Shown in pieces: positions 11,583-45,360 of a stretch of 64,000 nucleotides of DNA. This DNA comes from Cellvibrionaceae bacterium 1162T.S.0a.05 (GTDB lineage: Bacteria; Pseudomonadota; Gammaproteobacteria; Pseudomonadales; Cellvibrionaceae), in contig LANB01000001.1 of the NCBI GenBank assembly GCA_000964245.1, positions 1,700,392 to 1,764,391 on the forward strand. The letters run 5' to 3'. The position numbers and the translations under genes were made by a program. The notes beneath the pieces are model-generated. The model had not been told where the DNA came from. It worked only from the letters and a program-made list of their open reading frames with translations, and did not search any database. Each line of letters begins with the position of its first letter. Position 1 is the stretch's first letter.

Positions 11583-11608
11583 TTTTTTTATCCTGGTTAT
11601 GTAGCTGT

Positions 11609-13177
11609 ATGAACAGCGTACTTAGAAAAATAACAATACTCGGTGGTGGTTCAGCTGGCTGGTTGAGCGCTGGAATTATTGCAGCGGAACACCTGGTTAA
11701 TGAAAAATCCGGTATCGAAGTGACTCTCATCGAGTCTAGCGATATTGCACCTTTGGGTGTCGGTGAGGGTACCTGGCCTTCAATGCGCGCGACCTTAAAA
11801 AAAATGGGTATTTCCGAGACAGAATTTATTCTTGAATGCGATGCCAGTTTCAAGCAAGGTTCGAGATTTCAAGCGTGGATAAATAATCACAATGACTACT
11901 ATTACCACCCGTTCAGCTTACCCGTAGGGCACGAAAAGCTGGACATCGCACCTTTCTGGCTCCCCTATCACGAAAAAATAAGTTTTGCGGATGCAGTTTG
12001 CGTTCAGTCCAGGCTAGGTGATAAAAATTTGGCACCAAAGCTGATTTCCAGCGGAGAATATGCGTTCAATGCAAATTACGCCTACCATTTGGACGCAGGA
12101 AAATTCGCGGTGCTGTTACGTGAACATTGCGTCGAGAGGCTGGGTGTTAAACATGTTGTCGATCACGTTACCGCGGTAAACAGCACGAGCACAGGGGATA
12201 TAGCCTCTCTTACCACCAAGGAAAACGGTGATATTACTGGTGATCTTTTTATTGATTGTAGCGGTGCGGCATCAGTACTACTGGGTAAGCATTTTAAAGT
12301 GCCTTTCCTGAGTAAAAAAGATGTCTTATTTAATGATACTGCGCTTGCCGCGCAGGCTCCCTACGATTCACCTGAGAGTCCTATTGCATCCTTTACAGTG
12401 TCTACAGCGCAAACAGCAGGTTGGATATGGGATATTGGGCTGCAGTCGCGAAGAGGGATTGGCTATACCTATTCAAGTGCACATACCACTGACGAGCAGG
12501 CTGAAAATATACTGCGCAAATACATCTCACCCACGCCGTCTATGGGCGTACAAAACAAGGATGAAATCCTTGTCAGAAAATTATCCTTTGAGCCCGGACA
12601 CCGTGAGCAATTCTGGTATAAAAATTGTGTAGCGATTGGTGTGTCAGCGGGTTTCATTGAGCCTCTGGAAGCATCGGCACTCGCACTGATTGAACTCTCG
12701 GCAAAGATGGTCAGTGATCAATTGCCCGCAGATAGACGCGCAATGGATATTGTAGCCAGGCGATTTAACGAGAAATTTTTATATCGTTGGCAAAAGATAG
12801 TAGAGTTTTTAAAACTCCACTATGTACTAAGTCAGCGATCAGACAGTGACTATTGGCTCGATAATCGCAAATTAAATACAGTCCCTGATAGCTTACAGGA
12901 CATGCTTGCCTTGTGGCGCTATCAATCACCGAATAAATACGACTTCCCTCAATTGGAAGAGCTATTCCCCTCTGCAAGTTTCCAGTATGTTCTTTATGGT
13001 ATGGGGTTTATACCTGAACTTCCGGAAAGAGTGAAAAGAAAGGATAGTCGTGATTTAGCAAATAAACTAATTGAAGAAAATATACAGCACACAAAGCAAC
13101 TCATGGCTGTTCTTCCAACGAACAGGGGTTTAGTAAATAAACTCAAGCAGTATCACCGGATAGGGCAAGCCTTGTAA
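11609..13177 (+). CDS. Tryptophan-halogenase-family flavin-dependent halogenase homolog (copy 1)
   Basis: N-terminal FAD-binding motif ILGGGSAGW plus GEGTWPS. Size 522 aa. The WxWxIP-like region is GWIWDIGLQ. Confidence 0.8.
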   Translation: MNSVLRKITILGGGSAGWLSAGIIAAEHLVNEKSGIEVTLIESSDIAPLGVGEGTWPSMRATLKKMGISETEFILECDASFKQGSRFQAWINNHNDYYYHPFSLPVGHEKLDIAPFWLPYHEKISFADAVCVQSRLGDKNLAPKLISSGEYAFNANYAYHLDAGKFAVLLREHCVERLGVKHVVDHVTAVNSTSTGDIASLTTKENGDITGDLFIDCSGAASVLLGKHFKVPFLSKKDVLFNDTALAAQAPYDSPESPIASFTVSTAQTAGWIWDIGLQSRRGIGYTYSSAHTTDEQAENILRKYISPTPSMGVQNKDEILVRKLSFEPGHREQFWYKNCVAIGVSAGFIEPLEASALALIELSAKMVSDQLPADRRAMDIVARRFNEKFLYRWQKIVEFLKLHYVLSQRSDSDYWLDNRKLNTVPDSLQDMLALWRYQSPNKYDFPQLEELFPSASFQYVLYGMGFIPELPERVKRKDSRDLANKLIEENIQHTKQLMAVLPTNRGLVNKLKQYHRIGQAL

Positions 13178-13179
13178 TT

Positions 13180-13926
13180 TTGGAATTGAATATGACAAAT
13201 CATGTACTACTGAATAGCATCGACCATAAAGATATAAAGATAGTGACAGAACGATCAGCCGAGTATGGTGACAACCTATGGTATGCGCAGACATTTATTC
13301 AAGAATTCAAACATGTTCAAGCGCACTATCCGATTGTATTTCAGAAAAACCCTGAAAATGACGAATATTTTCCGGTTGCATTATTTGGTTTTAAAAATGA
13401 AGAAAACCTTTTTTTAAAAAACAAGCGCTGGGACGCTCACTATATTCCCCTATCCGTGAAACGTTTGCCTTTTTACATTGGTTTTCAGGAATCTGATTCT
13501 TATGGTGCTAGTGAAAATCAGAGAGTCATCAGTATAGATTTGGATTCGCCCAGGGTCAGTAAAGAAAAAGGCATTGATCTGTTTTTGGAGTTTGGTGGAA
13601 ATAGTCAATATCTCGAAGAAATGGCAAATATTCTGGAAACCCTGCATCACGGTTTACAGGGAAATGCTGCTTTCTGCAAAGCACTGGAATCTCTAAACTT
13701 GATTGAATCATTTACACTTAAAGTTCAGTTACATGATGGCAGTAATAATCAATTAATGGGTTTTTCTACTATCAATGAAGATGCCTTAAATAATTTAAGT
13801 GACGATAAGCTTGTTGAGTTGCATCGGGCGGGCTACTTGCAGGCTGCTTATTTGATGTTGGCCTCTCAAGTACACTTTCAGGATTTGGTTGAGAGAAAAA
13901 ACCGCAATGTTTCCGGGCCGATGTAA
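13180..13926 (+). CDS. SapC-family protein
   Basis: 248 aa; the IVFQKNPENDEYFPVALFG region is typical of SapC. It sits in the canonical position between halogenase and cupin genes. Confidence 0.7.
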   Translation: MELNMTNHVLLNSIDHKDIKIVTERSAEYGDNLWYAQTFIQEFKHVQAHYPIVFQKNPENDEYFPVALFGFKNEENLFLKNKRWDAHYIPLSVKRLPFYIGFQESDSYGASENQRVISIDLDSPRVSKEKGIDLFLEFGGNSQYLEEMANILETLHHGLQGNAAFCKALESLNLIESFTLKVQLHDGSNNQLMGFSTINEDALNNLSDDKLVELHRAGYLQAAYLMLASQVHFQDLVERKNRNVSGPM

Positions 13927-27149: not shown

Positions 27150-27220
27150 CAAAATCCTGTTACATGTAATAAATTTGTTTTTGTTACATGTAAAACGCTT
27201 TACATATCACATGTAATAGA
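27150..27220 (+). promoter_or_regulatory. Three phased palindromic TTACATGTAA-type operator candidates upstream of the 27226 operon
   Basis: TTACATGTAA at 27160-27169 and 27184-27193, cACATGTAAt at 27208-27217, and a TTACATAT half-site at 27200. The spacing is about 24-25 bp, and the sites lie 20-75 bp upstream of the start codon. Confidence 0.45.
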
Positions 27221-27225
27221 TTAAA

Positions 27226-27876
27226 GTGGGCCTCATGAAAGCGAAGTCTTCAGCGCATTACCAAAGAGAATATCGTCGTCGTTTGCGCGAGCAGGGCCTT
27301 GTGAAAAAGGAAGTCTGGATTCGCCCTGAAAACGCGAAGCAGCTGGCCGTATTCGAAAAAATCCTGCGTGATGTCATCGAGACACCGCTGGACCCTAACA
27401 AACTGTTGCGTAAAGGAGAGCACACAATGACAGACTTGAAATGTTGGACGACAGACTCTCTCTACGAGGCCATGAAAGATGAAGAGTTGATTCTCAGTGG
27501 GCAGGCCTCGGTAGAACTTATAGGTGGCGTGCATCCAACCTTGCATATCGTGATGCATGAGTACGGGGATTTACCCCTTTTTATGACCGTAGCCGGGGAG
27601 CAGCTTGTCGTTGAAGCCGTACTGTGGTCAACAGAGGAAGTCAGCGATCTTGCGAAATTTAATGATGCTGTGCTGCGAACACACAAGTATTTTCCGCTGT
27701 CCACCATAAGCCTGGACACTCTGGGCGACGGCAAGGATTACTACCACATGTTTGGCGCCTTGAGCTCCGCCTCGATTTTGCCGAACGTGATTTTTGAAAT
27801 TGAAACACTCGCTGCCAATGTGATTCAGGCAACGGAAGCCTACAGCGATCTGTTAAACCCCGCCAAAGAAGCTTAG
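27226..27876 (+). CDS. Hypothetical protein. An N-terminal basic, probably DNA-binding segment is fused to a YjfI/DUF2170-like domain (assignment tentative).
   Basis: The N-terminus KSSAHYQREYRRRLREQGLVKKEVWIRPE resembles RHH/phage-repressor-like basic motifs. It is followed immediately by a PspA/IM30 gene, as in E. coli yjfI-yjfJ. The ATG at 27235 is an alternative start. Confidence 0.4.
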   Translation: MGLMKAKSSAHYQREYRRRLREQGLVKKEVWIRPENAKQLAVFEKILRDVIETPLDPNKLLRKGEHTMTDLKCWTTDSLYEAMKDEELILSGQASVELIGGVHPTLHIVMHEYGDLPLFMTVAGEQLVVEAVLWSTEEVSDLAKFNDAVLRTHKYFPLSTISLDTLGDGKDYYHMFGALSSASILPNVIFEIETLAANVIQATEAYSDLLNPAKEA

Positions 27877-27892: not shown

Positions 27893-28576
27893 ATGAATAT
27901 CTGGGCGAAAATGATGACCGCTTTGCGCGGAGGCATTAACGAAGCCGGCGAAGCCATCGTCGACACGCAAGCCTTGCGCATTTTGGACCAGGAAGTCCGT
28001 GAGGCTACGGATGAGCTTGAGCAATCCAGGGATGGTTTGGCGGCAATTTTGGCTCGCCAAAAACTGGCCGAAGAAAAAGCGGCAAGTTTAAAAAAACAAA
28101 TTGGTGAATACGAAGGCTATGCCACCCAGGCGCTGGAAAAAGGTGACGACGCGCTTGCGCTTGAAGTCGCGCAGAAAATTGCCGACCTGGAGAACCAATT
28201 GCAAACTGAAAATGATGCGGCTGCGGGTTTTGCTGACAGTGCGAAGGATTTACGTTCCGCTATCAAGCAGGCAGAGAGCAATATCAAACGTATCAAGCAG
28301 CAAATCGATACAGTCAAAGCCAAGGAAAGTGTGCAAAAAGCACAAACGGCGGTTGCCGAAAGGCACAGTGGTTCCAATTCAAAAATGCGCACGGCGATGG
28401 ATTCACTGGAGCGCATTAAGGAAAAGCAAGCACTTAAAGATGCGCAAATAAAAGCGGCTGCTGAAATGTCACGTGAAAAAGGTGATGACAGCCTGCAAAC
28501 AAAACTGGAAGAAGCCGGGATCGCACCGACGGGTAAAAAAGCACAAGAGGTGCTGGACCGACTGAAAAAGAAATAG
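27893..28576 (+). CDS. PspA/IM30-family protein (YjfJ-like)
   Basis: The MNIWAKMMTALRGGINEAGEAIVD N-terminus and the long coiled coil (227 aa) are typical of PspA/Vipp1/YjfJ. Confidence 0.8.
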   Translation: MNIWAKMMTALRGGINEAGEAIVDTQALRILDQEVREATDELEQSRDGLAAILARQKLAEEKAASLKKQIGEYEGYATQALEKGDDALALEVAQKIADLENQLQTENDAAAGFADSAKDLRSAIKQAESNIKRIKQQIDTVKAKESVQKAQTAVAERHSGSNSKMRTAMDSLERIKEKQALKDAQIKAAAEMSREKGDDSLQTKLEEAGIAPTGKKAQEVLDRLKKK

Positions 28577-28973: not shown

Positions 28974-29288
28974 ATGATTATCACCACCCAGGATCGCATT
29001 GAAGAAAAAGAAATCGTTGAAACGCTCGGTCTTGTTCGGGGAAATACAATTCGGGCAAGGCACATTGGTAAGGATATTCTCGCGGGGCTGCGCACTATCG
29101 TCGGTGGTGAAATCAGTGAATACACCAAAATGCTGGCGGAAGCGCGTGAACAGGCCATTGACCGCATGACGGAAGAAGCAAGGAAGTTAGGTGCTGACGC
29201 GATTGTATGTTTACGTTTTACGACGTCGCCGGTTCTACAAGGCGCGGCGGAACTTCTAGCCTATGGAACAGCTGTAAAATTAAATTAA
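28974..29288 (+). CDS. YbjQ/UPF0145 (DUF74) family protein
   Basis: 104 aa; the EIVETLGLVRGNTIRARHIGKDILAGLRTIVGGEI core is typical of YbjQ. Confidence 0.75.
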   Translation: MIITTQDRIEEKEIVETLGLVRGNTIRARHIGKDILAGLRTIVGGEISEYTKMLAEAREQAIDRMTEEARKLGADAIVCLRFTTSPVLQGAAELLAYGTAVKLN

Positions 29289-29341: not shown

Positions 29342-30283
29342 ATGTTTAATCTCATTCTAATTTTTATATTATTTGTATTGTCAGTGCTTAGCGTGACGAA
29401 AATAGCGAGCGCTGTACAGGAAAAAGAAGCCGCACCCGTGTTTAGATACGGAGGCTATTTAGGTCTGGCAGCAGCGACAGTGTGGTTGGCATTCAGCTGT
29501 GTGATGACCGTGCCTGCAGGCCACGTCAAAGTGGCTACGCTCTTTGGTAAAGTACTTGATAATACCTATAAAGAAGGGTTTCATGTCGTCAATCCGCTAC
29601 TCGACTTTACGGTATTTGACCTCCGCCAAAAAACGCATAAAGAAACGGCAGGCATTCCTGCTGAGGATAAGTTGATTACCCGTATGGATGTGTCTGTGCA
29701 ATATCGAACTATCGGTAGCATGGCACCAGACATACTGAGAAACACCGGTACGACAGAATCACTTATCCAGGTTCATATGATTCCCAAGTTGCGTTCAATC
29801 TTGAGAGAGCAGGGTAAAGGAGTGCCGATGTCACAGGATTTTTTCAAGGAGTCGATTCAAAGACAGCTACAAGAGAGTTTACAAGTTGGCTTGGCGGATT
29901 TTCTTGCGGATAAAGGTATTCAGGTTGAGACTGTGCTTATTCGTGAAGTGCAACTGCCAGAAGTGATTCGCACGGCGATTACCGAAACCAAAAAACGTGA
30001 ACAGGAAGTATTAAAGCAGCAAGCAGAATTGGAGCGTTTCGCGACAGAGCAAGATCAGAAAGTGAAACAAGCCGAATCAGAGTTAAAAGCTGCGAAGCTT
30101 GAAGCTCAGAAAATCAAGGAGTTAGCTGATGCTGAAGCCTACAAAATCAAGGTGATTAACGAAACCCTGGCGAAATCACCTAACTACATTGAATTAAAGC
30201 GTGTTGAGCAATGGAATGGCGTTCTGCCAGTATACGCAGGCGGAGAAAACATCCCGATGATTGACTTAAGAAAACCACGCTAA
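29342..30283 (+). CDS. SPFH/band-7 (prohibitin-like) membrane protein
   Basis: N-terminal TM helix, then the SPFH core (VPAGHVKVATLFGKV...FHVVNPLLDFTVFDLRQ) and a C-terminal coiled coil. Confidence 0.8.
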   Translation: MFNLILIFILFVLSVLSVTKIASAVQEKEAAPVFRYGGYLGLAAATVWLAFSCVMTVPAGHVKVATLFGKVLDNTYKEGFHVVNPLLDFTVFDLRQKTHKETAGIPAEDKLITRMDVSVQYRTIGSMAPDILRNTGTTESLIQVHMIPKLRSILREQGKGVPMSQDFFKESIQRQLQESLQVGLADFLADKGIQVETVLIREVQLPEVIRTAITETKKREQEVLKQQAELERFATEQDQKVKQAESELKAAKLEAQKIKELADAEAYKIKVINETLAKSPNYIELKRVEQWNGVLPVYAGGENIPMIDLRKPR

Positions 30284-30336: not shown

Positions 30337-31023
30337 ATGTTTGCAATTCTCGTCACTGACAAAATGGATGTGTTCTACGGAAACATTACCAGCTTCCCCA
30401 CGGTCGTTTTCACCGTTTTACTTTTGTTTTGTTTTCTCTATTGGTTGGTTGCCGTCATTGGTTTGATCGACTTTGATTTTCTTGATTTCGATTTGCCGTC
30501 CGATGATATTGACCTGGGTGGAAACGATAGCCTCGAAAACGTGAATGTGCTGGCGGGCTTGCTGTTAAGGTTGGGCTTAAACGGTGTTCCCTTTCCCATT
30601 GTTTTTTCTATCATAACCATTATTGGCTGGCTAATCTGCTACTACGCGGTGTACTTTATTTTTCCGCTTGTGCCGGGCAGTGTACTCGAGTTTCTGGTCG
30701 GTATACCCATTCTTATAGCAACGTTTTATTTCAGTGCGTTAATTACCGGGAAAATCATTAAGCCACTCAAGTCTATATTTCGAGCTGCCAATCAGGAAGT
30801 TCAGAAAACCATCCTGGGAAAAGTTGCCATTGTTCGTACAGCAAGAGTGGATGCAGATTTTGGTGAAGCGGTTGTGGAAGATGGGGGTGCAGGTCTCATA
30901 GTGAAGGTAAGGCCGTACAAAAAACAAACCTTTACGCGCGGCGACCGTGTTGTATTACTGGAACACGTACGGGAAGAAAATATTTATAAAGTGATATCAG
31001 AACAAGAATTTAGCGATTCTTAA
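30337..31023 (+). CDS. NfeD/YqiJ-like membrane protein with a C-terminal OB-fold (flotillin partner)
   Basis: Multi-TM N-terminal half with an acidic DFDFLDFDLPSDDIDLGG loop. The C-terminal GKVAIVRTARVDADFGEAVVEDGGAGLIVKVRP is an NfeD-type OB fold. It sits immediately upstream of flotillin, as yqiJ does with yqiK. Confidence 0.6.
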   Translation: MFAILVTDKMDVFYGNITSFPTVVFTVLLLFCFLYWLVAVIGLIDFDFLDFDLPSDDIDLGGNDSLENVNVLAGLLLRLGLNGVPFPIVFSIITIIGWLICYYAVYFIFPLVPGSVLEFLVGIPILIATFYFSALITGKIIKPLKSIFRAANQEVQKTILGKVAIVRTARVDADFGEAVVEDGGAGLIVKVRPYKKQTFTRGDRVVLLEHVREENIYKVISEQEFSDS

Positions 31024-31036: not shown

Positions 31037-32965
31037 ATGTCAGAATATATTGGCGCATTGGGAGGCATAATGGTGGCGGTTTTTGCCATCTTTATATTTC
31101 TCGTGGTTGTGGCTGCGCTGTTTAAATCTTTCTATGTAAAGGTTGAGCAGGGCACCGCGTTAATTAAAAACGACCTTAGCACTCGTCCAAAAGTGTTTTT
31201 TACTGGTGCCTGGATTATTCCTGTCATCCATAAAAAGGAATTAATGCGTATCTCCTTGATTACCATGGAGGTCGATCGGCGAGGTAAAGATGGCTTGATC
31301 TGTAAGGACAATATGCGGGCGGATATCACGGTTGCGTTTTACCTGCGAGTCAATGAAACACCTGAAGATGTACTCAAAGTCGCCAAGTCACTCGGCTCCA
31401 GTCGCGCATCAAATAAAGATGCCGTAAATGAACTCTTCAATGCCAAATTTTCTGAGGCGTTGAAAACAGTGGGTAAGCGCTTTGACTTTGTGAACCTTTT
31501 TGAAAATCGTCAGGAGTTTCGCGACGCGATCATCGAAGTTATCGGCAACGACTTGAACGGTTACGTACTGGAAGACGTTGCAATTGATTATCTGGAGCAA
31601 ACGCCAAAAGTCTCACTGGACCCAAGCAATATTCTTGATGCAGAGGGTATTCGCAAGATCACTGAACTGACAGCGACTCAAAATGTACAAACCAATAATT
31701 ATGAGCGTGACGAAGAGCTCGCAATTAAGAAGAAAAACGTAGAAACCGTTGAAGCGATGCTGGAACTCGAACGCCAGCAGGCAGATGCGGAAGCCAAACA
31801 GCAACGTGAAATTGCCACCATTCAAGCGCGAGAAGAAGCGGAAACCATTAAAGTTCAGGAAGAAGAACGCAAAAAATCCTCTTCAGCAACCATCCAGGTT
31901 GACCAGGATCTCGCCGTACAAAAAGAAAATCAACAGCGTGAAATCGAAGTGGCCGAACAAAATCGCCAACGTGCAGTGGTTATTGAGGTCGAAAAAGTCA
32001 CGCGCGCACGAGATCTTGAAATTGTCGCCCGTGAACGCGAGGTCGAACTGCAACGTATTGATGCAGAAAAAGCAGTTGAAGTTGAGAAGAAAGAAATTGC
32101 CAATGTCATTCGGGAACGTGTTGCGGTTGATAAAACGGTTGCGATTGAAGAAGAGCGTATCAAGGAAGTGCGTGAAGTGTCTGAAGCAGATCGCCTGAAG
32201 CAAACCCAGGTATTGGCAGCAGAAGCTAAAGCGGAAGAAGAGAAAGTTAAACGTGTGAAAGAAGCGGAAGCTGAAGAGATTGCAGCGAAGCATAAAGCGG
32301 TTGAGGTCACCACTATCGCGCAGGCCGATCTCGAAGCGGCTGCGAAAGAAGCCGATGCCAAGAAGAAACTTGCAGAAGGTGTACAGGCTGAACGTGCAGC
32401 GCCGGGGCTTGCGGATGCCAAAGTGCAGGAAGCTAAAGCGGATGCGCTAGAGAAAGAAGGCCTTGCTGAAGCGAAAGTGATTGCATCAAAAGGTCAGAGC
32501 GAAGCGGAAGTGATTGCTGCGAAAGGCGATGCCGAGGCGCGTGCTACGAAAGAAACAGGTCTTGCGGGTGCTGAAGTTATTCGTCAGAAGTTCAAAGCGG
32601 AAGCGGACGGCCTTGTAGATAAATTCGAAGCGATGGGCACTATGAGTGATCAGGCGCGTAATCACGAAGAATTCCGTATGGCGCTGGAAACAGCTCTCAA
32701 GGAAGCGCTGGCCTCGATTGAAGCGGGTAAGGAAATCGCGAAGGAAAATGCCGAAGTGCTGGCCACAGCGCTGCAAAAAGCGAAGATCGATATTGTCGGT
32801 GGAGAAGATCACTTCTTCGATAACTTTGCGAAATCGCTTTCCATTGGTAAAGCGGTCGACGGGTTGGCCAACAAGAGCAGCACGATTTCGACTTTGTTGG
32901 AAAAAGTGATGGCCTTCTCTGCGGGTGCGCAGGCTACGAAAAGCTCCGATTTGGAAACCCAATAA
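31037..32965 (+). CDS. Flotillin-family protein (YqiK-like)
   Basis: N-terminal TM and SPFH domain (VEQGTALIKNDLSTRPKVFFTGAWIIPVIHK...), then a very long E/A/K-rich coiled-coil tail. 642 aa. Confidence 0.85.
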   Translation: MSEYIGALGGIMVAVFAIFIFLVVVAALFKSFYVKVEQGTALIKNDLSTRPKVFFTGAWIIPVIHKKELMRISLITMEVDRRGKDGLICKDNMRADITVAFYLRVNETPEDVLKVAKSLGSSRASNKDAVNELFNAKFSEALKTVGKRFDFVNLFENRQEFRDAIIEVIGNDLNGYVLEDVAIDYLEQTPKVSLDPSNILDAEGIRKITELTATQNVQTNNYERDEELAIKKKNVETVEAMLELERQQADAEAKQQREIATIQAREEAETIKVQEEERKKSSSATIQVDQDLAVQKENQQREIEVAEQNRQRAVVIEVEKVTRARDLEIVAREREVELQRIDAEKAVEVEKKEIANVIRERVAVDKTVAIEEERIKEVREVSEADRLKQTQVLAAEAKAEEEKVKRVKEAEAEEIAAKHKAVEVTTIAQADLEAAAKEADAKKKLAEGVQAERAAPGLADAKVQEAKADALEKEGLAEAKVIASKGQSEAEVIAAKGDAEARATKETGLAGAEVIRQKFKAEADGLVDKFEAMGTMSDQARNHEEFRMALETALKEALASIEAGKEIAKENAEVLATALQKAKIDIVGGEDHFFDNFAKSLSIGKAVDGLANKSSTISTLLEKVMAFSAGAQATKSSDLETQ

Positions 32966-32996: not shown

Positions 32997-33488
32997 ATGA
33001 AAACTCTAGTGAAAATTAGCCTTTTACTCATTCTGTCAGTGCCGGTATTTGCTGCAGATAACGAAAAGGCCGCACGCGCCGAACTGGATAAAATGTTCGA
33101 ACTAACGAATATGACTGCAATGGTCGATCAAATGTACGCCCAAATTGGGAATATGTGGCAACAAATGGCGGCGCAGCAAAATATTCCTGCTGACAAAGCG
33201 GGTGTCACTAAAAAATATTTTGAGAGACTCGAAGCCATAATGCGTGAAGACATGAGCTGGGAAAAAATGAAAGAACCAATGATGCAGGTCTACATTCGCG
33301 CTTTCAGTCTTGAAGAAATAAAAGCCATGAATGAATTCTACGAAACACCGGCAGGTTCTGCGATGTTGAAAAAAATGCCCCAGGTCATGCAGGAAAGCAT
33401 GATGGTGGGTCAACAACTTGCACAAGCAATGATGCCTAAAATCCAGGCTTTATCGCAGGAAATGTCTGCCGAACTGCAAGCGAAATAA
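32997..33488 (+). CDS. Periplasmic DUF2059-like protein
   Basis: Signal peptide and Met/Gln-rich helices (FYETPAGSAMLKKMPQVMQESMM). Confidence 0.55.
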   Translation: MKTLVKISLLLILSVPVFAADNEKAARAELDKMFELTNMTAMVDQMYAQIGNMWQQMAAQQNIPADKAGVTKKYFERLEAIMREDMSWEKMKEPMMQVYIRAFSLEEIKAMNEFYETPAGSAMLKKMPQVMQESMMVGQQLAQAMMPKIQALSQEMSAELQAK

Positions 33489-33512: not shown

Positions 33513-36500
33513 GTGTCAATAGAACGGGAAAGCGCACAAGTCGATCAAGCCGTTGCTGAAGGTGGCGCATACGAGGTTCTGCGCAAGCGCTTGCTTGAGC
33601 AGGGTACAGCGCTGGAGACTGCGATCAAAGCGCTCAATACAGCACGGCTGGATGAATTTGGTTCGTCAGATATGGAAGTCTGCGCGCGGGTTCGTATCCG
33701 CACGGAGAACAATTGTGTAGCGCGTGACATTGTCCAGGTTGGCCCTTTGCTTCTTTTTGGTTACAACGTTTTTATCGGTTTAAAAAAAGAAACACGCGTA
33801 GAGGATGTTTTTTCTGTTTTTTCACTAAAGGGTGAGGGAAAGGACCTGACGCTTGAAGAGGTCAAAGCAGAAAACTGCTTCCTGGCAAACAAGGCCTTCC
33901 GCAAAGACTTTAAAGAACTTTATCATTATTACAGCCAAACCAAATTGCTGGAGCTCACTGTCAAGGACGGCAAATTATTGATGGGCTTTCAAATCGGCGA
34001 GCGCCTGGAAGACCAGCGTGTTTTCCGTTGGGCATTTTCTCCAGACGGCACACAACTGGAATACATTGATAATCGCGGTGAGCGTGATATCGCGTTGCCA
34101 CCTTCCTATGATTTTGAATGGTTGAAACTCGGCCGTGACGATACCGTACATGGCAAACACGCGCATGTGAATGTGCTCGACAAGGTTTTTGTTGAAACAA
34201 CACGCGGCGATCTTACCATCAAAATTGAAAACAATACTGAAAGTGGATTGGGTATTTACAGCGAAGCGGTCGAAGAACCAAACCAATCCATAGACGACGC
34301 TGAATATTATTACGCTGCACTGGGGGATTTGATTCTTTTAAAAATCTTACCCTACAAAGAAGATCACTTCCGTTATTTTATTTTTAATACCCTAACGAAT
34401 GATATCCGCCGGCTTGATGCCATTGGCGGTTCTTGTGTGCAGCTCCCGGAAGATCACGGCGTGGTTTTTCCAGGTGGTTATTACTTGCAAAGTGGTGAAT
34501 ACAAAACCTTCGATAGCAATAGCGAAAACCTTCGTTTCAAACGGGTATTGAAATCGCCCAACGGCGAAGATGTACTTTACGTTTTCTACGAGCCTGAAAA
34601 GGGTATTTGCGGCCTGTTTGCTTACAACATGATCAATAAGAGCTTGCAAAACCCGATTTACGGGCATGGCTACGCGCTCAGAAACGACGGCAAGCTCATC
34701 ATATTTTCAGCCGAAAAAGAGGCGACACGTGTTCACCCCATGCAAATTTGGGAAACACCCTATTTCAGTGACGAGTACGCGAGCACCCAGCCCGCGAGTC
34801 AAAGTTACTATGGCCGTATTGGTAACGCTGCTCTGGTCCGAGGCATATCTGACGTTCTGTCTGTTGTCCGCATGATTAAAAACCAGAGTGTTAGCTCGCG
34901 GCTTTACGAAGAAATGGCCAGAGCCTCGCTCAAGGTGTTTGATGATCACTATTGGTTAGCGGAAGATGAATGTGCGGAAATTCAGGCACAGCTCAAAGAC
35001 ATTGCTTCGAGCGCCAATCTTGCAATTGATGAATTTGAGAAAGTCAAAAGCATTCAAAAACAAAGTGCACAGGCACTAAGAGAAGCGGATAGCAAACAGA
35101 AGGCGCTGGTATCGCGCATTCGCACAGCGAGTTGGGAAAATGCAGAAGACTATGTGAAAGCGCTCGATGAATGTCGCCACCAGCGTGGTCGTCTGGCAAC
35201 AATTAAAGATTACCGTTATATCGATCTCGAAAAAATCGGCGCGCTGGATGAAGAAATTGCTGAAGTCCAGGAGCAGCTTGGTGTTAAAACGATAGAATTT
35301 CTGAGCGCTGGCGATGCGCTAGCGCCCTACCTGGAAAAAATCAGTGGCATCGACAGTGAGGTGCAAGAAGCAGAAACGATTGCAACGCTAACCCCCTTGG
35401 TTGAGCAGATCGAAAACATTGCCTCTGGTCTGGACTTGCTGTCGGAATTACTTGCGAGCTTACAAGTTGGTGATACCACAGTACGCACCCGCATCGTCGA
35501 CAGCATCTCTGAAGTGTATGCGAAGCTGAACCAGAGTAAGGCGCAAGCACAACACAAGCAAAAAAATCTTGGCTCCGAAGAGGCCATCGCACAATTTGCC
35601 GCGCAATTTAAGTTGTTCTCACAAAGCATTACCAATGCCTTGGGTTTGGCAACAAGCCCGGAAGCTTGCGACGAGCAAATGTCGCGCTTGCTCATTCAGC
35701 TGGAAGAACTTGAAAGCCAATTCAGTGAATACGAACAATTCCTCGCAGATATTATGGAAAAGCGCGAGGAAATTTACGAAACCTTTGAAAGTCACAAGCA
35801 AAAATTGTTAGACGATTGTCAGCGGCGCGCGCAAGGCATTGCTGATGCGGCAGACAGGGTTCTGAGCAGTATTCAGCGGCGCAGCCAAAAATTTACCGAC
35901 CAGGATGAGCTCAATACCTATTTTGCTTCTGATGCTCTGGTGCTCAAGGTACGTGAATTCGTTGCGCAATTGCACAAACTGGATGCCAGTGTAAGCGCTG
36001 AAGACATCGATGCCCGTTTTAAAGCCCTGAAAGAACAAAGCATCCGAATTTTGCGTGATAAAAGTGATATTTACGAAGAGGGCGGTGCGGTTATCAAGTT
36101 GGGGCCGCGTCATAAATTTTCGGTGAATACCCAGGAGCTGGATCTCACCATCATACCCCGCAAAGATGCACTCTTTATTCATTTATCGGGAACAGATTAC
36201 TACCAGCGCATTGAGCATGAAGAGCTCAACGCGTTAAAACCCTGGTGGCATGTCAATCTGGAATCAGAAAGCGACGAGGTGTATCGCGCAGAATATCTGG
36301 CTGCCAGTATTTTGTGGGCAGCCCAATCCCGGCGCGATGATCTGGATATGGAGACCTTGCGTCTTGCCAGCTCAGACGACAAAGCGTTGAATAAACTTTG
36401 CCGAAATTTTGCCGCGCCACGCTACAAGGAAGGCTATGAAAAAGGCATACACGACCACGATGCTGCGCGGATTCTTTCTGCTCTTATTCCTGCAATGGAA

Positions 36501-38831
36501 AGTGCAGACTTGCTGCGTTTTGATCCGCAATGCCGGGGTTTTGCTCAGGTATTTTGGGCAAACATTGAAAGAATTTCGGCAGAACTAAAGAACAAACGCC
36601 TCACGTTTGAGACCTGGGTTGAGCGCGCGCAATCAGCACATCAGATGCAAGCTCAGCTACAAAGCCGCGACGCCGCTGAATTGCTCGCAGAAGAAGTGTT
36701 TGCAGCAATGCAGGAGTTTATCGCCTATCACCCCTTTGACCTCAGCGAACTGGAGTTAAAACGTGCTGCTGATTATCTTGTGGCTGAGTTGGGCGAGGAC
36801 CGACCGCAATTTGTTGGCTCAAAATATGCGAGAACACTGGCAGATGAATTAAAACGCTCATTGAATGATGAAAGCTGGCGGCAATTTCAAACCGCACTGA
36901 AGAAAATGCAGGGTTGGCCAGCAGAACGTTGGAAGCTCAGTTGTGCCTGGTTGAAAGCGATGGTCAAGGAGCGGAACCTGGAATCCTTGATGCGCTATGT
37001 CCCCGAAGCGGCAGCACTGATCAATGCAGACGAACGGATCGAACGACGCCCCTCGGAAGTGGATTTGGAATTAAATGTTGAAAAGCTCCTTGGGGATCAC
37101 AAACGTATCCAGAACCAATGTTTGCAACTAGGCGTCGATGAATTCCTTTTGCGTATGCACAAACATCGCAATGAATTTATTCCATCCTACCAGCGCTTTC
37201 ATCACTTGCGTCAGCGCATTGCCGATGAACAAAAGGCCCGCTTGCGCTTGCAGGAATTCAAAGCCAGGCCCTTGAGCTCGTTCGTACGCAACAAACTGAT
37301 TAACGAAGCCTACCTGCCTATTATTGGCGACAACCTGGCAAAACAAATGGGAACGGTCGGCGACAGTAAGCGCACGGATTTGATGGGCTTATTAATGATG
37401 ATCTCGCCTCCCGGCTACGGTAAAACCACATTAATGGAATATGTGGCGAGCCGCCTGGGATTGATATTCATGAAAATAAATTGCCCGGCCCTTGGACATG
37501 ATGTGCTATCACTGGACCCACAACAAGCGCCAAACGCAACGGCGGCTCAGGAGTTGAACAAACTCAATCTGGGTCTTGAAATGGGCAACAATGTCATGCT
37601 GTATCTGGATGATATTCAACATACTCATCCGGAATTTCTGCAAAAATTTATTTCTCTTTGCGATGGTACGCGCCGTATAGAAGGGGTATGGGACGGTCAA
37701 ACAAAAACCTACGATATGCGTGGCAAAAAATTCTGCGTTGTTATGGCCGGTAACCCCTACACCGAGTCTGGGGAAGTGTTCAAAATTCCGGACATGTTGG
37801 CTAACCGCGCCGACATTTATAATCTTGGTGATATTCTGGGCGGCATGGATGAGGCGTTCGCACTCAGTTATGTGGAGAACAGCCTAACATCAAACTCCGT
37901 GCTCGCGCCTCTCGCGACTCGGGATTTGAAAGACGTGTACCTTTTTGCGCGCATGGCACAAGGTGAAGATGTCGCGACCACAGATCTGAGCCATCAGTAT
38001 TCAGCGGCAGAAATCGGTGAAATTGTCGATGTCCTGAAAAAACTTTTCATGATTCGCGATGTCGTGTTGAAAATTAATCAACAATACATCGCCTCCGCAG
38101 CACAAGCGGACAAGTATCGCGTAGAGCCGCCCTTTAAACTGCAAGGTAGCTATCGCAACATGAATAAAATGGCAGAAAAGGTTTCTGCCATCATGAATGA
38201 AAAAGAACTTCAACAACTTATTGAAGATCATTACCTCGGTGAAGCACAGTTATTAACAACAGGTGCCGAAGAAAACCTGTTGAAACTGATGGAATTGCGC
38301 GGCGTTCTTCAAGGTGAAAAAGCGCAACGTTGGCAAGCCATTAAGAAAGATTTCTTGCGCGTTAAATCTCTTGGTGGAGACGACGCAGATACCGGAACCA
38401 AAATCATAACGCAGCTCGGCGTGTTGGGTGAAAGCTTGAATAGCATTGCTGTGGCTACCCAGCGAGCGGGCAAGGATTTTGGTAAGGCGGTGAGTAAAAC
38501 AGACAAAAGTCGTGATCATGCTGCTATGGATTCAAGAGTGGCGGACGCATTACTCGCCTTAAAATCCGTAATCGAGAAAATTGAATCAACAACAAAAAAT
38601 ACGCCACCTCCCAAGGTTGAAGTTATCAATCAACCCGTACCTGGCGTTGATAAAATATTGAGAGTGTTGGCAAAAACTATCGAAGGAACAATCTTTCCAC
38701 TGGTTCGCAGTATGGATAAGAAGCTGGAAATCGACCTGCGAACCCATGAAAAAATGTCTGAAGTTTCGAACCAACTCAGAGAACTGGAAAAGGAAGTTCG
38801 TACAGGTAGTTTTGAAAAAGGTCAGTCCTGA
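33513..38831 (+). CDS. Giant (1772 aa) protein with an N-terminal beta-rich domain, a long coiled coil and a C-terminal MoxR/AAA_5-like ATPase domain
   Basis: GTG start with an AGGAAG RBS. Walker A MMISPPGYGKTTLM, Walker B MLYLDDIQH and the MoxR-like sensor block VVMAGNPYTESGEVFKIPDMLANRADIYNLGD are present. About 600 aa of heptad-rich helix precede the ATPase. Confidence 0.8.
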   Translation: MSIERESAQVDQAVAEGGAYEVLRKRLLEQGTALETAIKALNTARLDEFGSSDMEVCARVRIRTENNCVARDIVQVGPLLLFGYNVFIGLKKETRVEDVFSVFSLKGEGKDLTLEEVKAENCFLANKAFRKDFKELYHYYSQTKLLELTVKDGKLLMGFQIGERLEDQRVFRWAFSPDGTQLEYIDNRGERDIALPPSYDFEWLKLGRDDTVHGKHAHVNVLDKVFVETTRGDLTIKIENNTESGLGIYSEAVEEPNQSIDDAEYYYAALGDLILLKILPYKEDHFRYFIFNTLTNDIRRLDAIGGSCVQLPEDHGVVFPGGYYLQSGEYKTFDSNSENLRFKRVLKSPNGEDVLYVFYEPEKGICGLFAYNMINKSLQNPIYGHGYALRNDGKLIIFSAEKEATRVHPMQIWETPYFSDEYASTQPASQSYYGRIGNAALVRGISDVLSVVRMIKNQSVSSRLYEEMARASLKVFDDHYWLAEDECAEIQAQLKDIASSANLAIDEFEKVKSIQKQSAQALREADSKQKALVSRIRTASWENAEDYVKALDECRHQRGRLATIKDYRYIDLEKIGALDEEIAEVQEQLGVKTIEFLSAGDALAPYLEKISGIDSEVQEAETIATLTPLVEQIENIASGLDLLSELLASLQVGDTTVRTRIVDSISEVYAKLNQSKAQAQHKQKNLGSEEAIAQFAAQFKLFSQSITNALGLATSPEACDEQMSRLLIQLEELESQFSEYEQFLADIMEKREEIYETFESHKQKLLDDCQRRAQGIADAADRVLSSIQRRSQKFTDQDELNTYFASDALVLKVREFVAQLHKLDASVSAEDIDARFKALKEQSIRILRDKSDIYEEGGAVIKLGPRHKFSVNTQELDLTIIPRKDALFIHLSGTDYYQRIEHEELNALKPWWHVNLESESDEVYRAEYLAASILWAAQSRRDDLDMETLRLASSDDKALNKLCRNFAAPRYKEGYEKGIHDHDAARILSALIPAMESADLLRFDPQCRGFAQVFWANIERISAELKNKRLTFETWVERAQSAHQMQAQLQSRDAAELLAEEVFAAMQEFIAYHPFDLSELELKRAADYLVAELGEDRPQFVGSKYARTLADELKRSLNDESWRQFQTALKKMQGWPAERWKLSCAWLKAMVKERNLESLMRYVPEAAALINADERIERRPSEVDLELNVEKLLGDHKRIQNQCLQLGVDEFLLRMHKHRNEFIPSYQRFHHLRQRIADEQKARLRLQEFKARPLSSFVRNKLINEAYLPIIGDNLAKQMGTVGDSKRTDLMGLLMMISPPGYGKTTLMEYVASRLGLIFMKINCPALGHDVLSLDPQQAPNATAAQELNKLNLGLEMGNNVMLYLDDIQHTHPEFLQKFISLCDGTRRIEGVWDGQTKTYDMRGKKFCVVMAGNPYTESGEVFKIPDMLANRADIYNLGDILGGMDEAFALSYVENSLTSNSVLAPLATRDLKDVYLFARMAQGEDVATTDLSHQYSAAEIGEIVDVLKKLFMIRDVVLKINQQYIASAAQADKYRVEPPFKLQGSYRNMNKMAEKVSAIMNEKELQQLIEDHYLGEAQLLTTGAEENLLKLMELRGVLQGEKAQRWQAIKKDFLRVKSLGGDDADTGTKIITQLGVLGESLNSIAVATQRAGKDFGKAVSKTDKSRDHAAMDSRVADALLALKSVIEKIESTTKNTPPPKVEVINQPVPGVDKILRVLAKTIEGTIFPLVRSMDKKLEIDLRTHEKMSEVSNQLRELEKEVRTGSFEKGQS

Positions 38832-38834
38832 TCT

Positions 38835-39392
38835 ATGGCCAGCGAGAGTATAGTTGCGCGCGTAAAATTGCTGTTCAGCTTATGCATGTTTCTGATTCTG
38901 GTTCATGCAGCGAATGTGTTTCTACAAGGCTATTTACTGCAATTCGGCATTTTACCGCGGGAACCCACTAGCCTGCCTTTTATATTCACCACCGTATTTA
39001 TTCATGGGTCCTGGGCGCATTTATTTAACAACCTCTTCGGCCTTGTAATTTTTGGTTCGCTTTGTCTTTTGCGCGGTCGCCGATATTTCATTAACGCCAG
39101 CCTCTTTATTATTGTAGTCGGTGGGCTACTGGTATGGGCGTTTGGTCGGCCAGCAATACACATCGGTGCGAGTGGATGGATATTTGGCTTGTGGAGTTTA
39201 AGTATTGCTCTTGCCTGGTACCAAAAAAGCTTTATCAACTTCGCTATAGCGGTGCTTGTTCTATTTTTTTATGGCGGGATGATATACGGCGTACTGCCAG
39301 CGGATAAAGCGATTTCATTTGAAGCGCACCTGGCGGGCGCCTTCGCAGGCATTCTATGTGCTGCAAATAGCAGAACACGAAAAATACGGTAA
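38835..39392 (+). CDS. Rhomboid-family intramembrane serine protease
   Basis: GASGWIFGL (GxSG) and AHLAGAFAGIL (catalytic His helix) with 6 TM helices. The start lies 4 nt after the giant ORF stop. Confidence 0.8.
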   Translation: MASESIVARVKLLFSLCMFLILVHAANVFLQGYLLQFGILPREPTSLPFIFTTVFIHGSWAHLFNNLFGLVIFGSLCLLRGRRYFINASLFIIVVGGLLVWAFGRPAIHIGASGWIFGLWSLSIALAWYQKSFINFAIAVLVLFFYGGMIYGVLPADKAISFEAHLAGAFAGILCAANSRTRKIR

Positions 39393-39452
39393 ACATACAC
39401 CTCAGAGCAATTTTTTTAACAAAGGAGAGTTACAAAAAGGAAAGGAGAAAAA

Positions 39453-39704
39453 ATGAAAAGGAAATTTTCAGTAAAAGTCAATCATTATGCAGCAAAAGCA
39501 ATAGATGTAAATTTTAATAGTAATGAAGAGACAATCGCAATCAACCTTGTTTTATTGATGATTGTTGGTGGAGTCGCATGGTATGGAATCGAACATAAAA
39601 TATGGGGATTGTTCTGGTTTTTTATCGTTGCCGGTACCCTTATAGGGATATCCCTGTTAATCGATTTATACTTGCTTATTAAGAAAAAGATATGTCCAGA
39701 TTAA
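39453..39704 (+). CDS. Small two-TM membrane protein
   Basis: RBS AAAGGAGAAAAAATG. 83 aa. It overlaps the start of the PLD-like gene. Confidence 0.4.
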   Translation: MKRKFSVKVNHYAAKAIDVNFNSNEETIAINLVLLMIVGGVAWYGIEHKIWGLFWFFIVAGTLIGISLLIDLYLLIKKKICPD

Positions 39705-40387
39705 AAGAGCTTGAACAAAAACTTCTAATCACATTCGAAGATCTGCGTTTATCCAAGCTGGAAAAATATGAGTTGCAGAAGCTTGTGACTGAATGCTCGG
39801 AAGAGGAGCGTCGTTTTCTCAAGAATCGGGCTTTTGCTATTTTCAGGGAGCATTTAAATCATTTTGAAGATGCTGCTGATGCTTATTCGTGGCTTGAGCG
39901 TTGCGTAAAGGCACTAGCGCTTCCGCAAAATCATTTGGCGAAACCACGGGTCTATTTTTCGCCAGGTGAAACGTGCCGGCAGGCCATCGTACATGAAATA
40001 AAAAACGCCCGAGAGAAAATACAGATTTGCGTGTTTACCATTTCAGACAACGTAATAAGTGAAGCACTATTGCAAGCTTTTGAAAAGGGTATAGACCTAA
40101 AAATTATTACCGACAATGAAAAAAAGGAAGATCGGGGATCCGATATTAATGCGCTAAAAAACGCGGGCATCGCAGTAAGAGAAGATGCGAGCCCGGATCA
40201 TATGCATCACAAATTTGCGATTTTTGATAACGACGTACTTATAAATGGCAGTTTCAATTGGACGCGAAGTGCAAGCCTTCGAAACCACGAGAATATCGTG
40301 GTCCACCGCCAACCGCAGCTTGTTGCTGAATTTCAAAGAGAGTTTGCTAGACTGTGGACTCAATTTTCCAAAGAGGGGAGACGATAA
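39692..40387 (+). CDS. Phospholipase-D-superfamily (single HKD, Nuc-like) protein with an N-terminal helical extension
   Basis: HKD motif HHKFAIFDNDVLINGSFNWTRSA. About 140-aa PLD core after a 90-aa coiled-coil N-terminus. Confidence 0.7.
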   Translation: MSRLKELEQKLLITFEDLRLSKLEKYELQKLVTECSEEERRFLKNRAFAIFREHLNHFEDAADAYSWLERCVKALALPQNHLAKPRVYFSPGETCRQAIVHEIKNAREKIQICVFTISDNVISEALLQAFEKGIDLKIITDNEKKEDRGSDINALKNAGIAVREDASPDHMHHKFAIFDNDVLINGSFNWTRSASLRNHENIVVHRQPQLVAEFQREFARLWTQFSKEGRR

Positions 40388-40917
40388 TGCATTGCCCGGT
40401 ATGTAAAGAACCCGATCTGGAGCCCAGAGAACTTGAACGTGGACTGGTAGGCGCAGTGTGTCAATCTTGCGAAGGCGCACTTTTATCATTGATACAGTAC
40501 CGCTATTGGGTCGATCATCATGATGACAAGGAACTTAAACCTTTGGAGGAGGGGCCAATCAAGGAAAGTGAAAATGCCTTGCTGTGCCCAAAGTGCCAAA
40601 AAATGATGACTAAATATCGCTTGGGGGCTGGAACTCGCCACCGTATAGATCTTTGCGGTCATTGCGATGAGGCCTGGCTTGACAAGGGGGAATGGCAATT
40701 GCTCAAACAATTGGATTTACACAATCAATTGCCTTCTGTTTTTACCGAGGCTTGGCAGCGCAATATTCGTAAACAAAAAGAACGTCAAAGCCTGGAAAAA
40801 CACTATGAACAAGAAATTGGAGAAGAAGATTTTTTAAAAGTAAAAACATTTAAAGAGTGGCTCGACAAGCATCCGAAACTGGGGCAGATAAAACACTATA
40901 TCAATATCAAGTTTTAA
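40387..40917 (+). CDS. Zinc-ribbon protein with four CxxC pairs
   Basis: CPVCKE...CQSCEG and CPKCQK...CGHCDE. The start ATG overlaps the PLD stop (TAATG). Confidence 0.6.
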   Translation: MHCPVCKEPDLEPRELERGLVGAVCQSCEGALLSLIQYRYWVDHHDDKELKPLEEGPIKESENALLCPKCQKMMTKYRLGAGTRHRIDLCGHCDEAWLDKGEWQLLKQLDLHNQLPSVFTEAWQRNIRKQKERQSLEKHYEQEIGEEDFLKVKTFKEWLDKHPKLGQIKHYINIKF

Positions 40918-40929
40918 GGGGAGTGATTA

Positions 40930-41165
40930 TGACTGAAGCAAGAGACTATCTGGAGTTAACCTTTCGTTCGATCAATTGCTTTGCCGACGATGGCAAGCTC
41001 GATGTTCAGGAGTTGGATAGTTTAATCAGCATCGCGCTACGCGATGGTGTTGTTGATGATAACGAAAAGCGTGTTTTGCAAGCGATTATCGGTCGATTGA
41101 ACCAACAAGAGCTGACTGAGGAAATGCAGGCTAGAATCAAACAAATCCAGAACACTTATTTCTGA
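40930..41165 (+). CDS. TerB-like (tellurite-resistance TerB fold) small protein
   Basis: [38 protein letters not shown] is a TerB/DjlA-N type acidic helix pair. 78 aa. Confidence 0.5.
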
Positions 41166-41272: not shown

Positions 41273-41470
41273 ATGTTAGTGTTAACTCGAAAAATCGGCG
41301 AAACCGTCATGATCGGCGATGATACTGCTGTAACCGTGTTGGGCATGCGCGGTGGCCATGTCCGTATCGGAATCGCCGCACCAAAGGAACTGCCCGTTCA
41401 TCGTGAAGAAGTGTATATAAAAATCAAGCGTGGGATGGGTGTACCCGGCTATACCTTCGAGAATTGCTGA
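41273..41470 (+). CDS. csrA: Carbon storage regulator CsrA
   Basis: [48 protein letters not shown] is near-identical in pattern to E. coli CsrA. 65 aa. Confidence 0.9.
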
Positions 41471-45283: not shown

Positions 45284-45360
45284 GCACCCGTAGCTCAGCT
45301 GGATAGAGTAGGTGGCTTCGAACCACTTGGTCGGGAGTTCGAATCTCTCCGGGTGCGCCA
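45284..45360 (+). tRNA. tRNA-Arg (anticodon reads TCG)
   Basis: Manual cloverleaf: 7-bp acceptor stem GCACCCG/CGGGTGC, D-arm GCTC/GAGT, anticodon stem GGTGG/CCACT with loop CTTCGAA, T-arm GGGAG-TTCGAAT-CTCTC, 3' CCA. It is near-identical in architecture to E. coli tRNA-Arg(ACG). Confidence 0.85.

Follow-up and report, generated by a model that had tools for sequence, protein, structure and literature searches.

The window analysed here is a 64-kb stretch of DNA from Cellvibrionaceae bacterium 1162T.S.0a.05 (contig LANB01000001.1), in which 13 genes, all on the forward strand and separated by tiny gaps or overlapping, occupy 13.9 kb between positions 27226 and 41165 with a spacing that is predicted to fit a single transcript (Table 1). 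This cluster begins with genes for a BacA/YjfI homologue and a PspA protein and ends with three genes encoding a phospholipase D (PLD)-superfamily protein with a single HKD motif (HKD protein), a soluble double zinc-ribbon protein (ZnR) and a small TerB-like protein, a trio which the original prediction had described as a compact effector-sensor module inserted between a rhomboid gene and csrA. Instead, these three genes, together with those for the rhomboid protease and a peptide with two transmembrane (TM) segments, almost certainly belong to a BacA/YjfI-PspA-YqiJ-like-flotillin-DUF3686 envelope-stress operon of the Psp type, of which they constitute the variable 3' accessory end.

Table 1. 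Features of the operon and its surroundings in the 64-kb window, with the Pfam family and value where a match was obtained
Feature	Position	Strand	Evidence and remarks
Candidate operator, three T[TC]ACATGT[AG]A copies	27160-27216	+	Spacing 24 and 23 bp; just 5' of the first gene
BacA/YjfI homologue heading the operon (DUF2170, CesT/Tir-like)	27226-27876	+	DUF2170 2.3e-49
PspA/IM30, YjfJ/BacB type	27893-28576	+	PspA_IM30 6.1e-45; 17 nt past the first gene
YbjQ-family protein, lineage-specific insertion	28974-29288	+	YbjQ_1 6.3e-40
Extra (second) SPFH/Band-7 protein, lineage-specific insertion	29342-30283	+	Band_7 3.4e-18
YqiJ/YuaF-like (NfeD-like) multi-TM protein, BacC position	30337-31023	+	Homology, position
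Flotillin-like SPFH protein with N-terminal TM segment, BacD/PaFlo3 position	31037-32965	+	Homology, position
DUF2059 protein between flotillin and ATPase, lineage-specific insertion	32997-33488	+	DUF2059 1.2e-18
DUF3686 + DUF7902 + AAA+ ATPase (BacE), 1772 aa	33513-38831	+	DUF3686 4.3e-198; DUF7902 6.6e-28; AAA 1.8e-5
Rhomboid intramembrane protease, optional accessory gene	38835-39392	+	Rhomboid 1.2e-20; 3 nt past the ATPase stop
Two-TM peptide, lineage-specific, 83 aa	39453-39704	+	Hydrophobic residues 26-44 and 49-67
Single-HKD PLD6/Zucchini-like phosphodiesterase (BacF orthologue), 231 aa	39692-40387	+	PLDc_2 5.3e-32
Soluble double zinc-ribbon protein (ZnR), PF13453 type, 176 aa	40387-40917	+	Zn_ribbon_TFIIB 7.5e-9
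TerB-like four-helix protein, 78 aa	40929-41165	+	11 nt after the ZnR stop; GGGGAG precedes the start
csrA	41273-41470	+	107-nt gap after the TerB-like gene
Cobalamin riboswitch, unrelated to the trio	4795-4981	-	
tRNA-Arg(TCG), unrelated to the trio	45284-45360	+	

Genes at the 3' end of the operon are tightly joined, with the frame of the two-TM peptide running 13 nt into the start of the HKD gene and the ZnR start codon overlapping the HKD stop codon as TAATG. This overlap, the four CxxC pairs of the ZnR protein and the small two-TM protein preceding the trio had all been read correctly in the original prediction, as had the spacing of within 12 bp ahead of the TerB-fold protein, whose fold assignment stands in part, as discussed below. 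HKD, ZnR and TerB-like are regarded as real genes because many full-length homologues of them exist. No homologue of the two-TM peptide was found in any fetched locus or outside the source genome; a small non-homologous TM protein also sits 5' of the HKD gene in one metagenome locus (L090). Promoter and terminator scans of the operon gave counts no better than those in shuffled sequence, and no sigma-54 consensus was found 5' of the first gene. The YqiJ-like protein is hydrophobic at residues 12-49 and 71-127 (five windows of 19 residues), and neither it nor the flotillin-like protein has a Pfam match, both being assigned only via homology and position. The DUF3686 protein carries its AAA domain at residues 1295-1372 (Pfam), bears the database name 'DNA repair ATPase' and is 65-82% identical in its ATPase region across Gamma- and Betaproteobacteria. 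A search of the PDB with the AAA+ region returned no close solved relative, only Walker-A-level matches to p97/Rix7, and literature searches on DUF3686 and PF12458 found no paper.

The identity of the operon follows from its gene content and order. Its first gene encodes a DUF2170 protein that scores 316 bits against the NCBIfam equivalog 'biofilm formation regulator BacA' (cutoff 300), with PspA directly 3', a YqiJ-like protein followed by a protein with TM segment and SPFH domain, the DUF3686 AAA+ ATPase and an HKD gene on the same strand, the rhomboid and two-TM genes standing between the last two. Systems of this kind had already been described by computation and, in part, by experiment. 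In the computational survey of Ravi et al. 2024 an operon class was defined composed of CesT/Tir(YjfI)-PspA, a TM-band-7-flotillin, YqiJ/YuaF and a novel AAA+ ATPase featuring a beta-propeller as well as a coiled coil, and a PLD (HKD) hydrolase was noted in some Proteobacteria (PMC11237479). PA3732-PA3729 of Pseudomonas aeruginosa have been named the biofilm-associated cluster, and a mutant in the PspA-like PA3731, whose product is induced by osmotic shock, is impaired in biofilm formation, swarming, rhamnolipid production and virulence (PMC2587700). Wallart et al. 2024 described bacA-bacF (PA14_16140-16200) as six genes on one co-transcript, and found 6- to 13-fold increased levels of BacB-F when bacA was mutated (PMC10948618). 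BacE (PA14_16190) is RsmA-regulated and annotated as 'ATPase involved in DNA repair' (PMC8855297), and since this annotation is the description of DUF3686, PA14_16190 is taken to be the DUF3686 protein. Furthermore, phage infection up-regulates PA3728-PA3732 (PMC12041424). RsmA is a CsrA homologue, and the csrA gene of the window adjoins an operon whose BacE orthologue in P. aeruginosa is RsmA-regulated (PMC8855297); csrA was seen beside the operon in the window alone and in no other locus, and this adjacency may be a coincidence.

Assignment of the HKD gene to bacF was achieved using the published bacE/bacF junction primers, which match exactly in three metagenome loci (L144, L146 and L147), the forward primer falling within the DUF3686 gene, at its 3' end, and the reverse primer on the first codons (MDFDGLD) of a 230-aa HKD open reading frame. 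Because these primers mark the L144 HKD frame, and the window HKD protein is 42.5% identical to it, the latter is considered the BacF orthologue. The bacABCDEF operon (PA3732-PA3727 / PA14_16140-16200) and the L144 locus have the same families in the same order as the window, with HKD as the last conserved gene, and the window proteins share with those of L144 an identity of 51% (BacA), 55% (BacB), 35% (BacC), 67% (BacD) and 55% (BacE), besides that given for BacF. Present in the window and not in L144 are the rhomboid, two-TM peptide, ZnR and TerB-like genes around BacE/BacF, and the YbjQ, second SPFH and DUF2059 genes inside the operon, the last three having no counterpart in the other loci compared. 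Rhomboid is mentioned neither by Ravi et al. (PMC11237479) nor by Wallart et al. (PMC10948618), and TerB is absent from the former.

Comparative analysis showed to what extent these accessory genes accompany the DUF3686 gene. A scan with the HKD alignment over one genome per species recovered at least 596 relatives, which span Gamma- and Betaproteobacteria, Planctomycetota, Bacteroidota and Myxococcota, and the best 80 loci, the source genome itself not being among them, were analysed. HKD lies 36-1358 bp 3' of the DUF3686 gene in 42 of the 80, with flotillin, the YqiJ-like gene and usually PspA on the 5' side, and these 42 loci contain rhomboid in 27 cases, TerB-like in 21 and ZnR in nine, while the 38 HKD loci without DUF3686 contain neither ZnR nor TerB-like. 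A second scan, of metagenomes and anchored on the DUF3686 ATPase, gave 36 fully evaluable loci, all with flotillin and with a YqiJ-like gene at the position it has in the window, 21 with YjfI-PspA, 12 with HKD, nine with TerB-like, eight with rhomboid and three with ZnR. As had been expected, the trio does co-occur elsewhere, in the HKD-ZnR-TerB order of the window in two Cellvibrio loci (L048 and L054) and in an order unlike it in L090. Other arrangements are TerB-YqiJ-Flot-DUF3686-rhomboid-ZnR-HKD in Litoribrevibacter, Litoribacillus and a metagenome-assembled genome of Oceanospirillaceae (L006, L018 and L013), Flot-TerB-DUF3686-rhomboid-HKD in genomes of the Pseudomonas group, ZnR 5' of DUF3686 in Betaproteobacteria, and ZnR inside DUF3686 operons devoid of HKD in Hahella and Bacterioplanoides. 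Because presence and position vary in this manner among DUF3686 operons, the trio is not a unit, and each of its genes is an optional accessory.

Such optionality could be taken to mean that the three genes are functionally unrelated passengers, which have piled up at the 3' end where read-through is tolerated. Each gene is indeed optional and able to occur alone elsewhere, and the window operon also holds the lineage-specific YbjQ, extra SPFH and DUF2059 genes. However, recurrence of the same families with DUF3686 at varied positions in Gamma- and Betaproteobacteria points to selection for linkage, TerB-like is under strong purifying selection, and the stop/start overlaps indicate translational coupling, rendering this explanation improbable. 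Solitary HKD genes, found in Hahella, Teredinibacter, Planctomycetota, Bacteroidota and Myxococcota among others, were seen at the level of individual loci (L003, L042, L050, L060, L063, L080 and others) to retain the N-terminal four-helix domain in unrelated contexts, and all-against-all clustering of their neighbours revealed no shared partners beyond closely related genomes. Two further accessory genes were observed in related loci. One encodes an MtfA-like protein of the Peptidase_M90 family, carrying a SEC-C motif at its C-terminus, in five metagenome loci (L090 at 11062-11922, L092, L097, L098 and L100), which lies just 5' of ZnR where ZnR is present and adjoins rhomboid in L097, and the other a DUF2339 membrane protein.

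The same comparisons bear on the idea of an autonomous, horizontally inserted anti-phage effector-sensor module between rhomboid and csrA. At the level of the PLD domain, the window HKD protein matches the PADLOC models MkoC (3.5e-12), DrmC (1.6e-11), MkoB (9.3e-9) and also DpdK; the GC content of the trio, 0.42-0.43, is slightly lower than the 0.46-0.49 of the DUF3686 gene, and Cellvibrio has the three genes in the order of the window. Against this, ZnR and TerB-like, which accompany HKD in none of the 38 loci outside DUF3686 operons, shift their positions within the operon and have no PADLOC match, rhomboid itself belongs to the accessory set, and HKD is co-transcribed with bacA-E in P. aeruginosa. 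Moreover, the full-length HKD family is absent from phages and from conjugative plasmids, being represented in the plasmid collection only on Vibrio/Photobacterium chromids, where it lies beside DUF3686; the thousands of matches on conjugative plasmids are Nuc-like proteins containing the HKD domain only, of which those next to virB11 have an identity of 29-39%. PADLOC and NCBIfam searches for a named defence system returned PLD-domain-level matches only, and the partners of Mokosh and DISARM are absent from the window. Hence, the reading as an anti-phage module is largely refuted and is considered very improbable, and of the stress- and defence-island flavour attributed to the trio, the stress part holds in the form of a Psp-type envelope-stress operon and the defence module does not. 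As a separate observation, DUF3686 also occurs on megaplasmids including pQBR103, a 425-kb plasmid of P. fluorescens SBW25, where flotillin-DUF3686 (L168, 87112-106296) lies directly 3' of yjfK/L/M/C-type polyamine genes (DUF2491, DUF350, DUF1190 and the glutathionylspermidine synthase family) with no HKD adjoining, such that pQBR103 joins the two YjfJ-type operon classes of Ravi et al.; the window flotillin is 53% identical to the product of a pQBR103 gene named 'SPFH domain-containing protein' in RefSeq.

Upstream of the operon, the 10-bp palindrome T[TC]ACATGT[AG]A is repeated three times, and these copies are its sole matches in the whole window. In 29 of 31 loci, among them L144 of the P. 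aeruginosa type, the palindrome is located within about 70 bp 5' of the DUF2170 gene, with two to three tandem copies at a spacing of about 22-24 bp in L144, L021, L043, L088, L094-L096, L101 and others, and only 60 copies are present in the 2.79 Mb of fetched loci. This element is likely to be the operator of the operon and may possibly be bound by BacA itself, which is a candidate because residues 5-49 of BacA weakly match the repressor family UrfF and because BacA negatively controls the operon. The palindromic element is not mentioned by Wallart et al. 2024 (PMC10948618).

Of the two small accessory proteins, ZnR consists of two ribbons, with CxxC pairs at C4/C7, C26/C29, C68/C71 and C91/C94 (alignment numbering), followed by a WLDxGEW motif and a conserved helical C-terminal half. 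Some divergent members have lost the second ribbon, and an 82-aa 'transcription factor zinc-finger' protein is the sole relative with a solved structure. Within the trio, conservation is highest for TerB-like, whose homologues are 59-75% identical to the window protein. It belongs to a discrete family of stand-alone proteins of about 80 aa, for which a search of 1.84 billion proteins gave 293 representatives at E ≤0.001. The nearest named homologues of ZnR and TerB-like belong to genera such as Marinibactrum, Thalassocella and Cellvibrio, which are Cellvibrionales. The TerB assignment holds in part, because the window protein, at 17.8 bits, stays below the Pfam TerB (PF05099) cutoff of 24.4. 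Sub-threshold TerB matches are likewise given by 19 of 26 family members, and a few members match EF-hand models; a PDB profile search yielded nothing significant. The sequence contains two acidic DG-x-[LV]-D-x-x-E loops. A giant protein of 1336 aa (P0501) contains six copies of the TerB-like motif along with many TPR repeats, and its residues of about 550-594, which are matched by the TerB-like profile, score above the Pfam TerB threshold, thereby connecting the family of the 78-aa protein with bona fide TerB repeats.

The single-HKD PLD call for the third protein was confirmed, with HxK(x)4D(x)6GSxN intact (H172, K174, D179, G186, S187 and N189) and invariant in the family. The N-terminal extension, which had been read as a coiled coil, is instead predicted in the AF2 model (pLDDT 80.7) to be a compact four-helix bundle of residues 3-75 (pLDDT about 80-93), followed by a flexible linker and the HKD fold. 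Alignment of residues 2-41 of this N-domain with residues 24-63 of the TerB-like protein by hhalign (probability 87%, with a pairwise E-value and over one helix-loop-helix only) suggests that the two may be related. No TM segment is predicted in HKD, ZnR or TerB-like. Using the family profile of HKD, the best PDB matches are to MitoPLD/Zucchini (PLD6; 9lkx 1.4e-38 and 4ggj 3.9e-37), deposited under the name 'mitochondrial cardiolipin hydrolase', with weaker matches to the bacterial nucleases Nuc of Salmonella (6.3e-21) and NucT of H. pylori (2.3e-14). The single sequence aligns with mammalian PLD6 over 136 residues with 37% identity and zero gaps, and Foldseek with the HKD model placed mouse Zuc on top (TM 0.70).

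Within this clade, nuclease activity has been robustly shown in vitro for Nuc, NucT and Zucchini. A superfamily 1 (SF1) helicase gene (AAA_11/AAA_12) is found in the HKD gene cluster of 13 loci, lying just 3' of HKD in 12 of them. For example, in L002 the helicase gene (10687-13398, about 905 aa) has as its first base the last base of the HKD stop codon, and in the divergent thirteenth locus (L126) it lies at 6393-9110 between DUF3686 and HKD, next to the DUF2339 membrane protein gene. These helicases match the PADLOC models MkoC (1.7e-43) and MkoA (7e-43), with a range of 1e-43 to 1e-26 over the 13 loci. On account of the nucleolytic in vitro activities of the clade and of the helicase in the same cluster, the substrate of HKD is by analogy suggested, with slightly better than even confidence, to be nucleic acid, either RNA or single-stranded DNA near the membrane. 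As an observation in its own right, the pairing of a Mokosh/piRNA-like helicase with a Zucchini-like PLD thus occurs inside a Psp/flotillin operon, as in L002.

The membrane context of the operon gives rise to an alternative, namely cleavage of an anionic phospholipid, which is viewed as possible with distinctly less than even confidence. Here, BacF of the same operon would be a lipid phosphodiesterase converting cardiolipin or phosphatidylglycerol to phosphatidic acid at patches marked by flotillin and PspA, where altered curvature and fusogenicity would aid membrane repair and remodelling, with TerB-like and ZnR tuning recruitment. Such a lipid role has been proposed for MitoPLD in mitochondrial fusion. 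The other conserved genes of the operon are all membrane-linked (PspA, flotillin, YqiJ-like, rhomboid), the nearest solved structures carry the cardiolipin hydrolase name, the window is without a helicase, and bac mutants of P. aeruginosa have surface and secretion phenotypes (rhamnolipid, biofilm, swarming). Furthermore, Ravi et al. 2024 proposed that cardiolipin-rich domains recruit flotillin to interface with PspA (PMC11237479). However, a helicase adjoining HKD in 12 loci and clustered with it in a thirteenth would make no sense for a lipase, the HKD protein has neither a TM segment nor an obvious amphipathic anchor, and the activities robustly shown in vitro for the small single-HKD enzymes of the clade (Nuc, NucT and Zucchini) are nucleolytic, so that this lipid alternative as a whole is a serious contender of lesser probability.

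With nucleic acid as the favoured substrate, a mechanism can be proposed in which envelope stress switches the operon on, as shown for the P. aeruginosa orthologue upon osmotic shock and phage infection, probably through BacA and the conserved palindrome. The inner membrane would then be the site where PspA, flotillin, the YqiJ-like protein and the AAA+ ATPase assemble, after the scheme of Ravi et al. By analogy with Nuc and Zucchini, we infer that the soluble HKD protein would dimerise to build one active site, and it may be held on or released from the membrane platform via its N-terminal four-helix TerB-like domain. The TerB-like protein could act through its acidic DG loops as a sensor of a divalent cation or ligand and ZnR, by analogy with the two-zinc-ribbon YdjG of Bacillus subtilis, as an adaptor, after which HKD would cut phosphodiester bonds. 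Several points weigh against this proposal. Thus, for BacF, ZnR and TerB-like all steps beyond operon membership are inferred, and a lipid substrate is favoured by the remaining genes of the operon, all of them indicative of membrane and lipid biology. HKD is solitary in 38 of the 80 genomes and TerB-like sometimes so, hence the linkage is not obligatory, and the narrow extent of the match between N-domain and TerB-like has been stated above. The HKD domain is near-neutral (net charge -5 to +1 in the family), lacking the overall basicity that nucleic-acid binders might be expected to have, although net charge and pI do not separate a nuclease from a lipase, because mammalian PLD6 is similar. 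In addition, tblastn with two operon-linked helicases as query detected no helicase in the 64-kb window. Taken together, the full statement, comprising operon membership and a platform-controlled HKD with nucleic acid as its substrate, falls just short of even confidence.

A bolder formulation, tentative and rather unlikely to hold in its entirety, is that a damage platform of PspA (ESCRT-III-like), flotillin and the AAA+ ATPase directly controls a Zucchini/MitoPLD-type phosphodiesterase via a TerB-like cation sensor and a ZnR adaptor, such that envelope injury, including phage entry, would cause either nucleic acid, in some lineages with the aid of a Mokosh/piRNA-like helicase, or cardiolipin to be cleaved locally. 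Among prokaryotes, the BacF clade would be nearest to eukaryotic PLD6, which may possibly have arisen from it. What is new here is that BacF, with its TerB-like N-domain, is placed in a PLD6-like clade, that rhomboid, ZnR, TerB-like, the M90 peptidase and the Mokosh-like helicase are recognised as genes of the variable part of the operon, and that a conserved palindromic operator candidate lies 5' of bacA. Physiologically, the bac operon is of importance in P. aeruginosa for biofilm formation, swarming, rhamnolipid secretion and virulence, and it is phage-induced. The enzyme type of BacF, its optional partner families and the palindromic element thus provide testable handles on this system and bear on the long-running question of whether PLD6-type enzymes act on lipid or nucleic acid. 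The bacterial orthologue is a small, soluble protein accessible to genetics.

Among known systems, the pspA-ydjGHI (samGHI) operon of B. subtilis also joins PspA, an SPFH protein and the two-zinc-ribbon YdjG (Ravi et al. 2024, PMC11237479), and recruitment there runs from YdjG/H to the SPFH protein and from the latter to PspA, a functional precedent for an adaptor with zinc ribbons. However, this operon has no AAA+ ATPase and no HKD, and YdjG has a membrane anchor and an NTF2-like domain, while the window ZnR is soluble with a helical C-terminal half, the likeness of the two being one of description. The TerB and DjlA N-terminal (TerB-like) domains of the Ter stress systems share with TerB-like the repeated helix - DG-x-h-D-x-x-E - helix motif, and some sources call its homologues 'TerB family' or 'DjlA N-terminal domain', but the TerB-like protein is about half as long as a TerB domain, and none of the TerC, TerD, TerZ and TelA partners of Ter clusters was found among the window open reading frames at 20 to 45 kb. 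Within the PLD superfamily, a secreted endonuclease of the Nuc type (about 155 aa, with signal peptide, its gene often beside conjugation genes) was ruled out, as the HKD protein has 231 aa, a helical N-domain and no hydrophobic leader. DISARM, a cluster in which DrmC goes with the helicase DrmA, with DrmB (DUF1998) and with a methyltransferase, was likewise rejected, since besides the PLD domain PADLOC gave no Drm match for the six genes at 33513-41165 and Pfam places the remaining operon genes elsewhere. Mokosh combines an SF1 helicase and a PLD nuclease (bioRxiv 10.1101/2025.07.10.664194), as MkoA helicase (Upf1-like) and MkoB PLD or as the fused MkoC, and was also rejected for the window, where the helicase is missing and the genes neighbouring HKD are ZnR and TerB-like. 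Furthermore, HKD scores far higher with PLD6 than with the Mko models and lies in a Psp/flotillin operon and not in a defence island. The closest counterpart of the HKD protein is PLD6 (MitoPLD/Zucchini), which has one HKD motif as does the bacterial protein and is its best match in sequence and structure, ahead of Nuc and NucT. Genomic context differs between the two, and PLD6 possesses an N-terminal transmembrane anchor where bacterial HKD has a soluble four-helix domain, but for either protein a helicase partner is found in some contexts, Armitage/MOV10L1 for PLD6 and the SF1 helicase for the HKD family, and PLD6 acts, and HKD is predicted to act, at the membrane surface.

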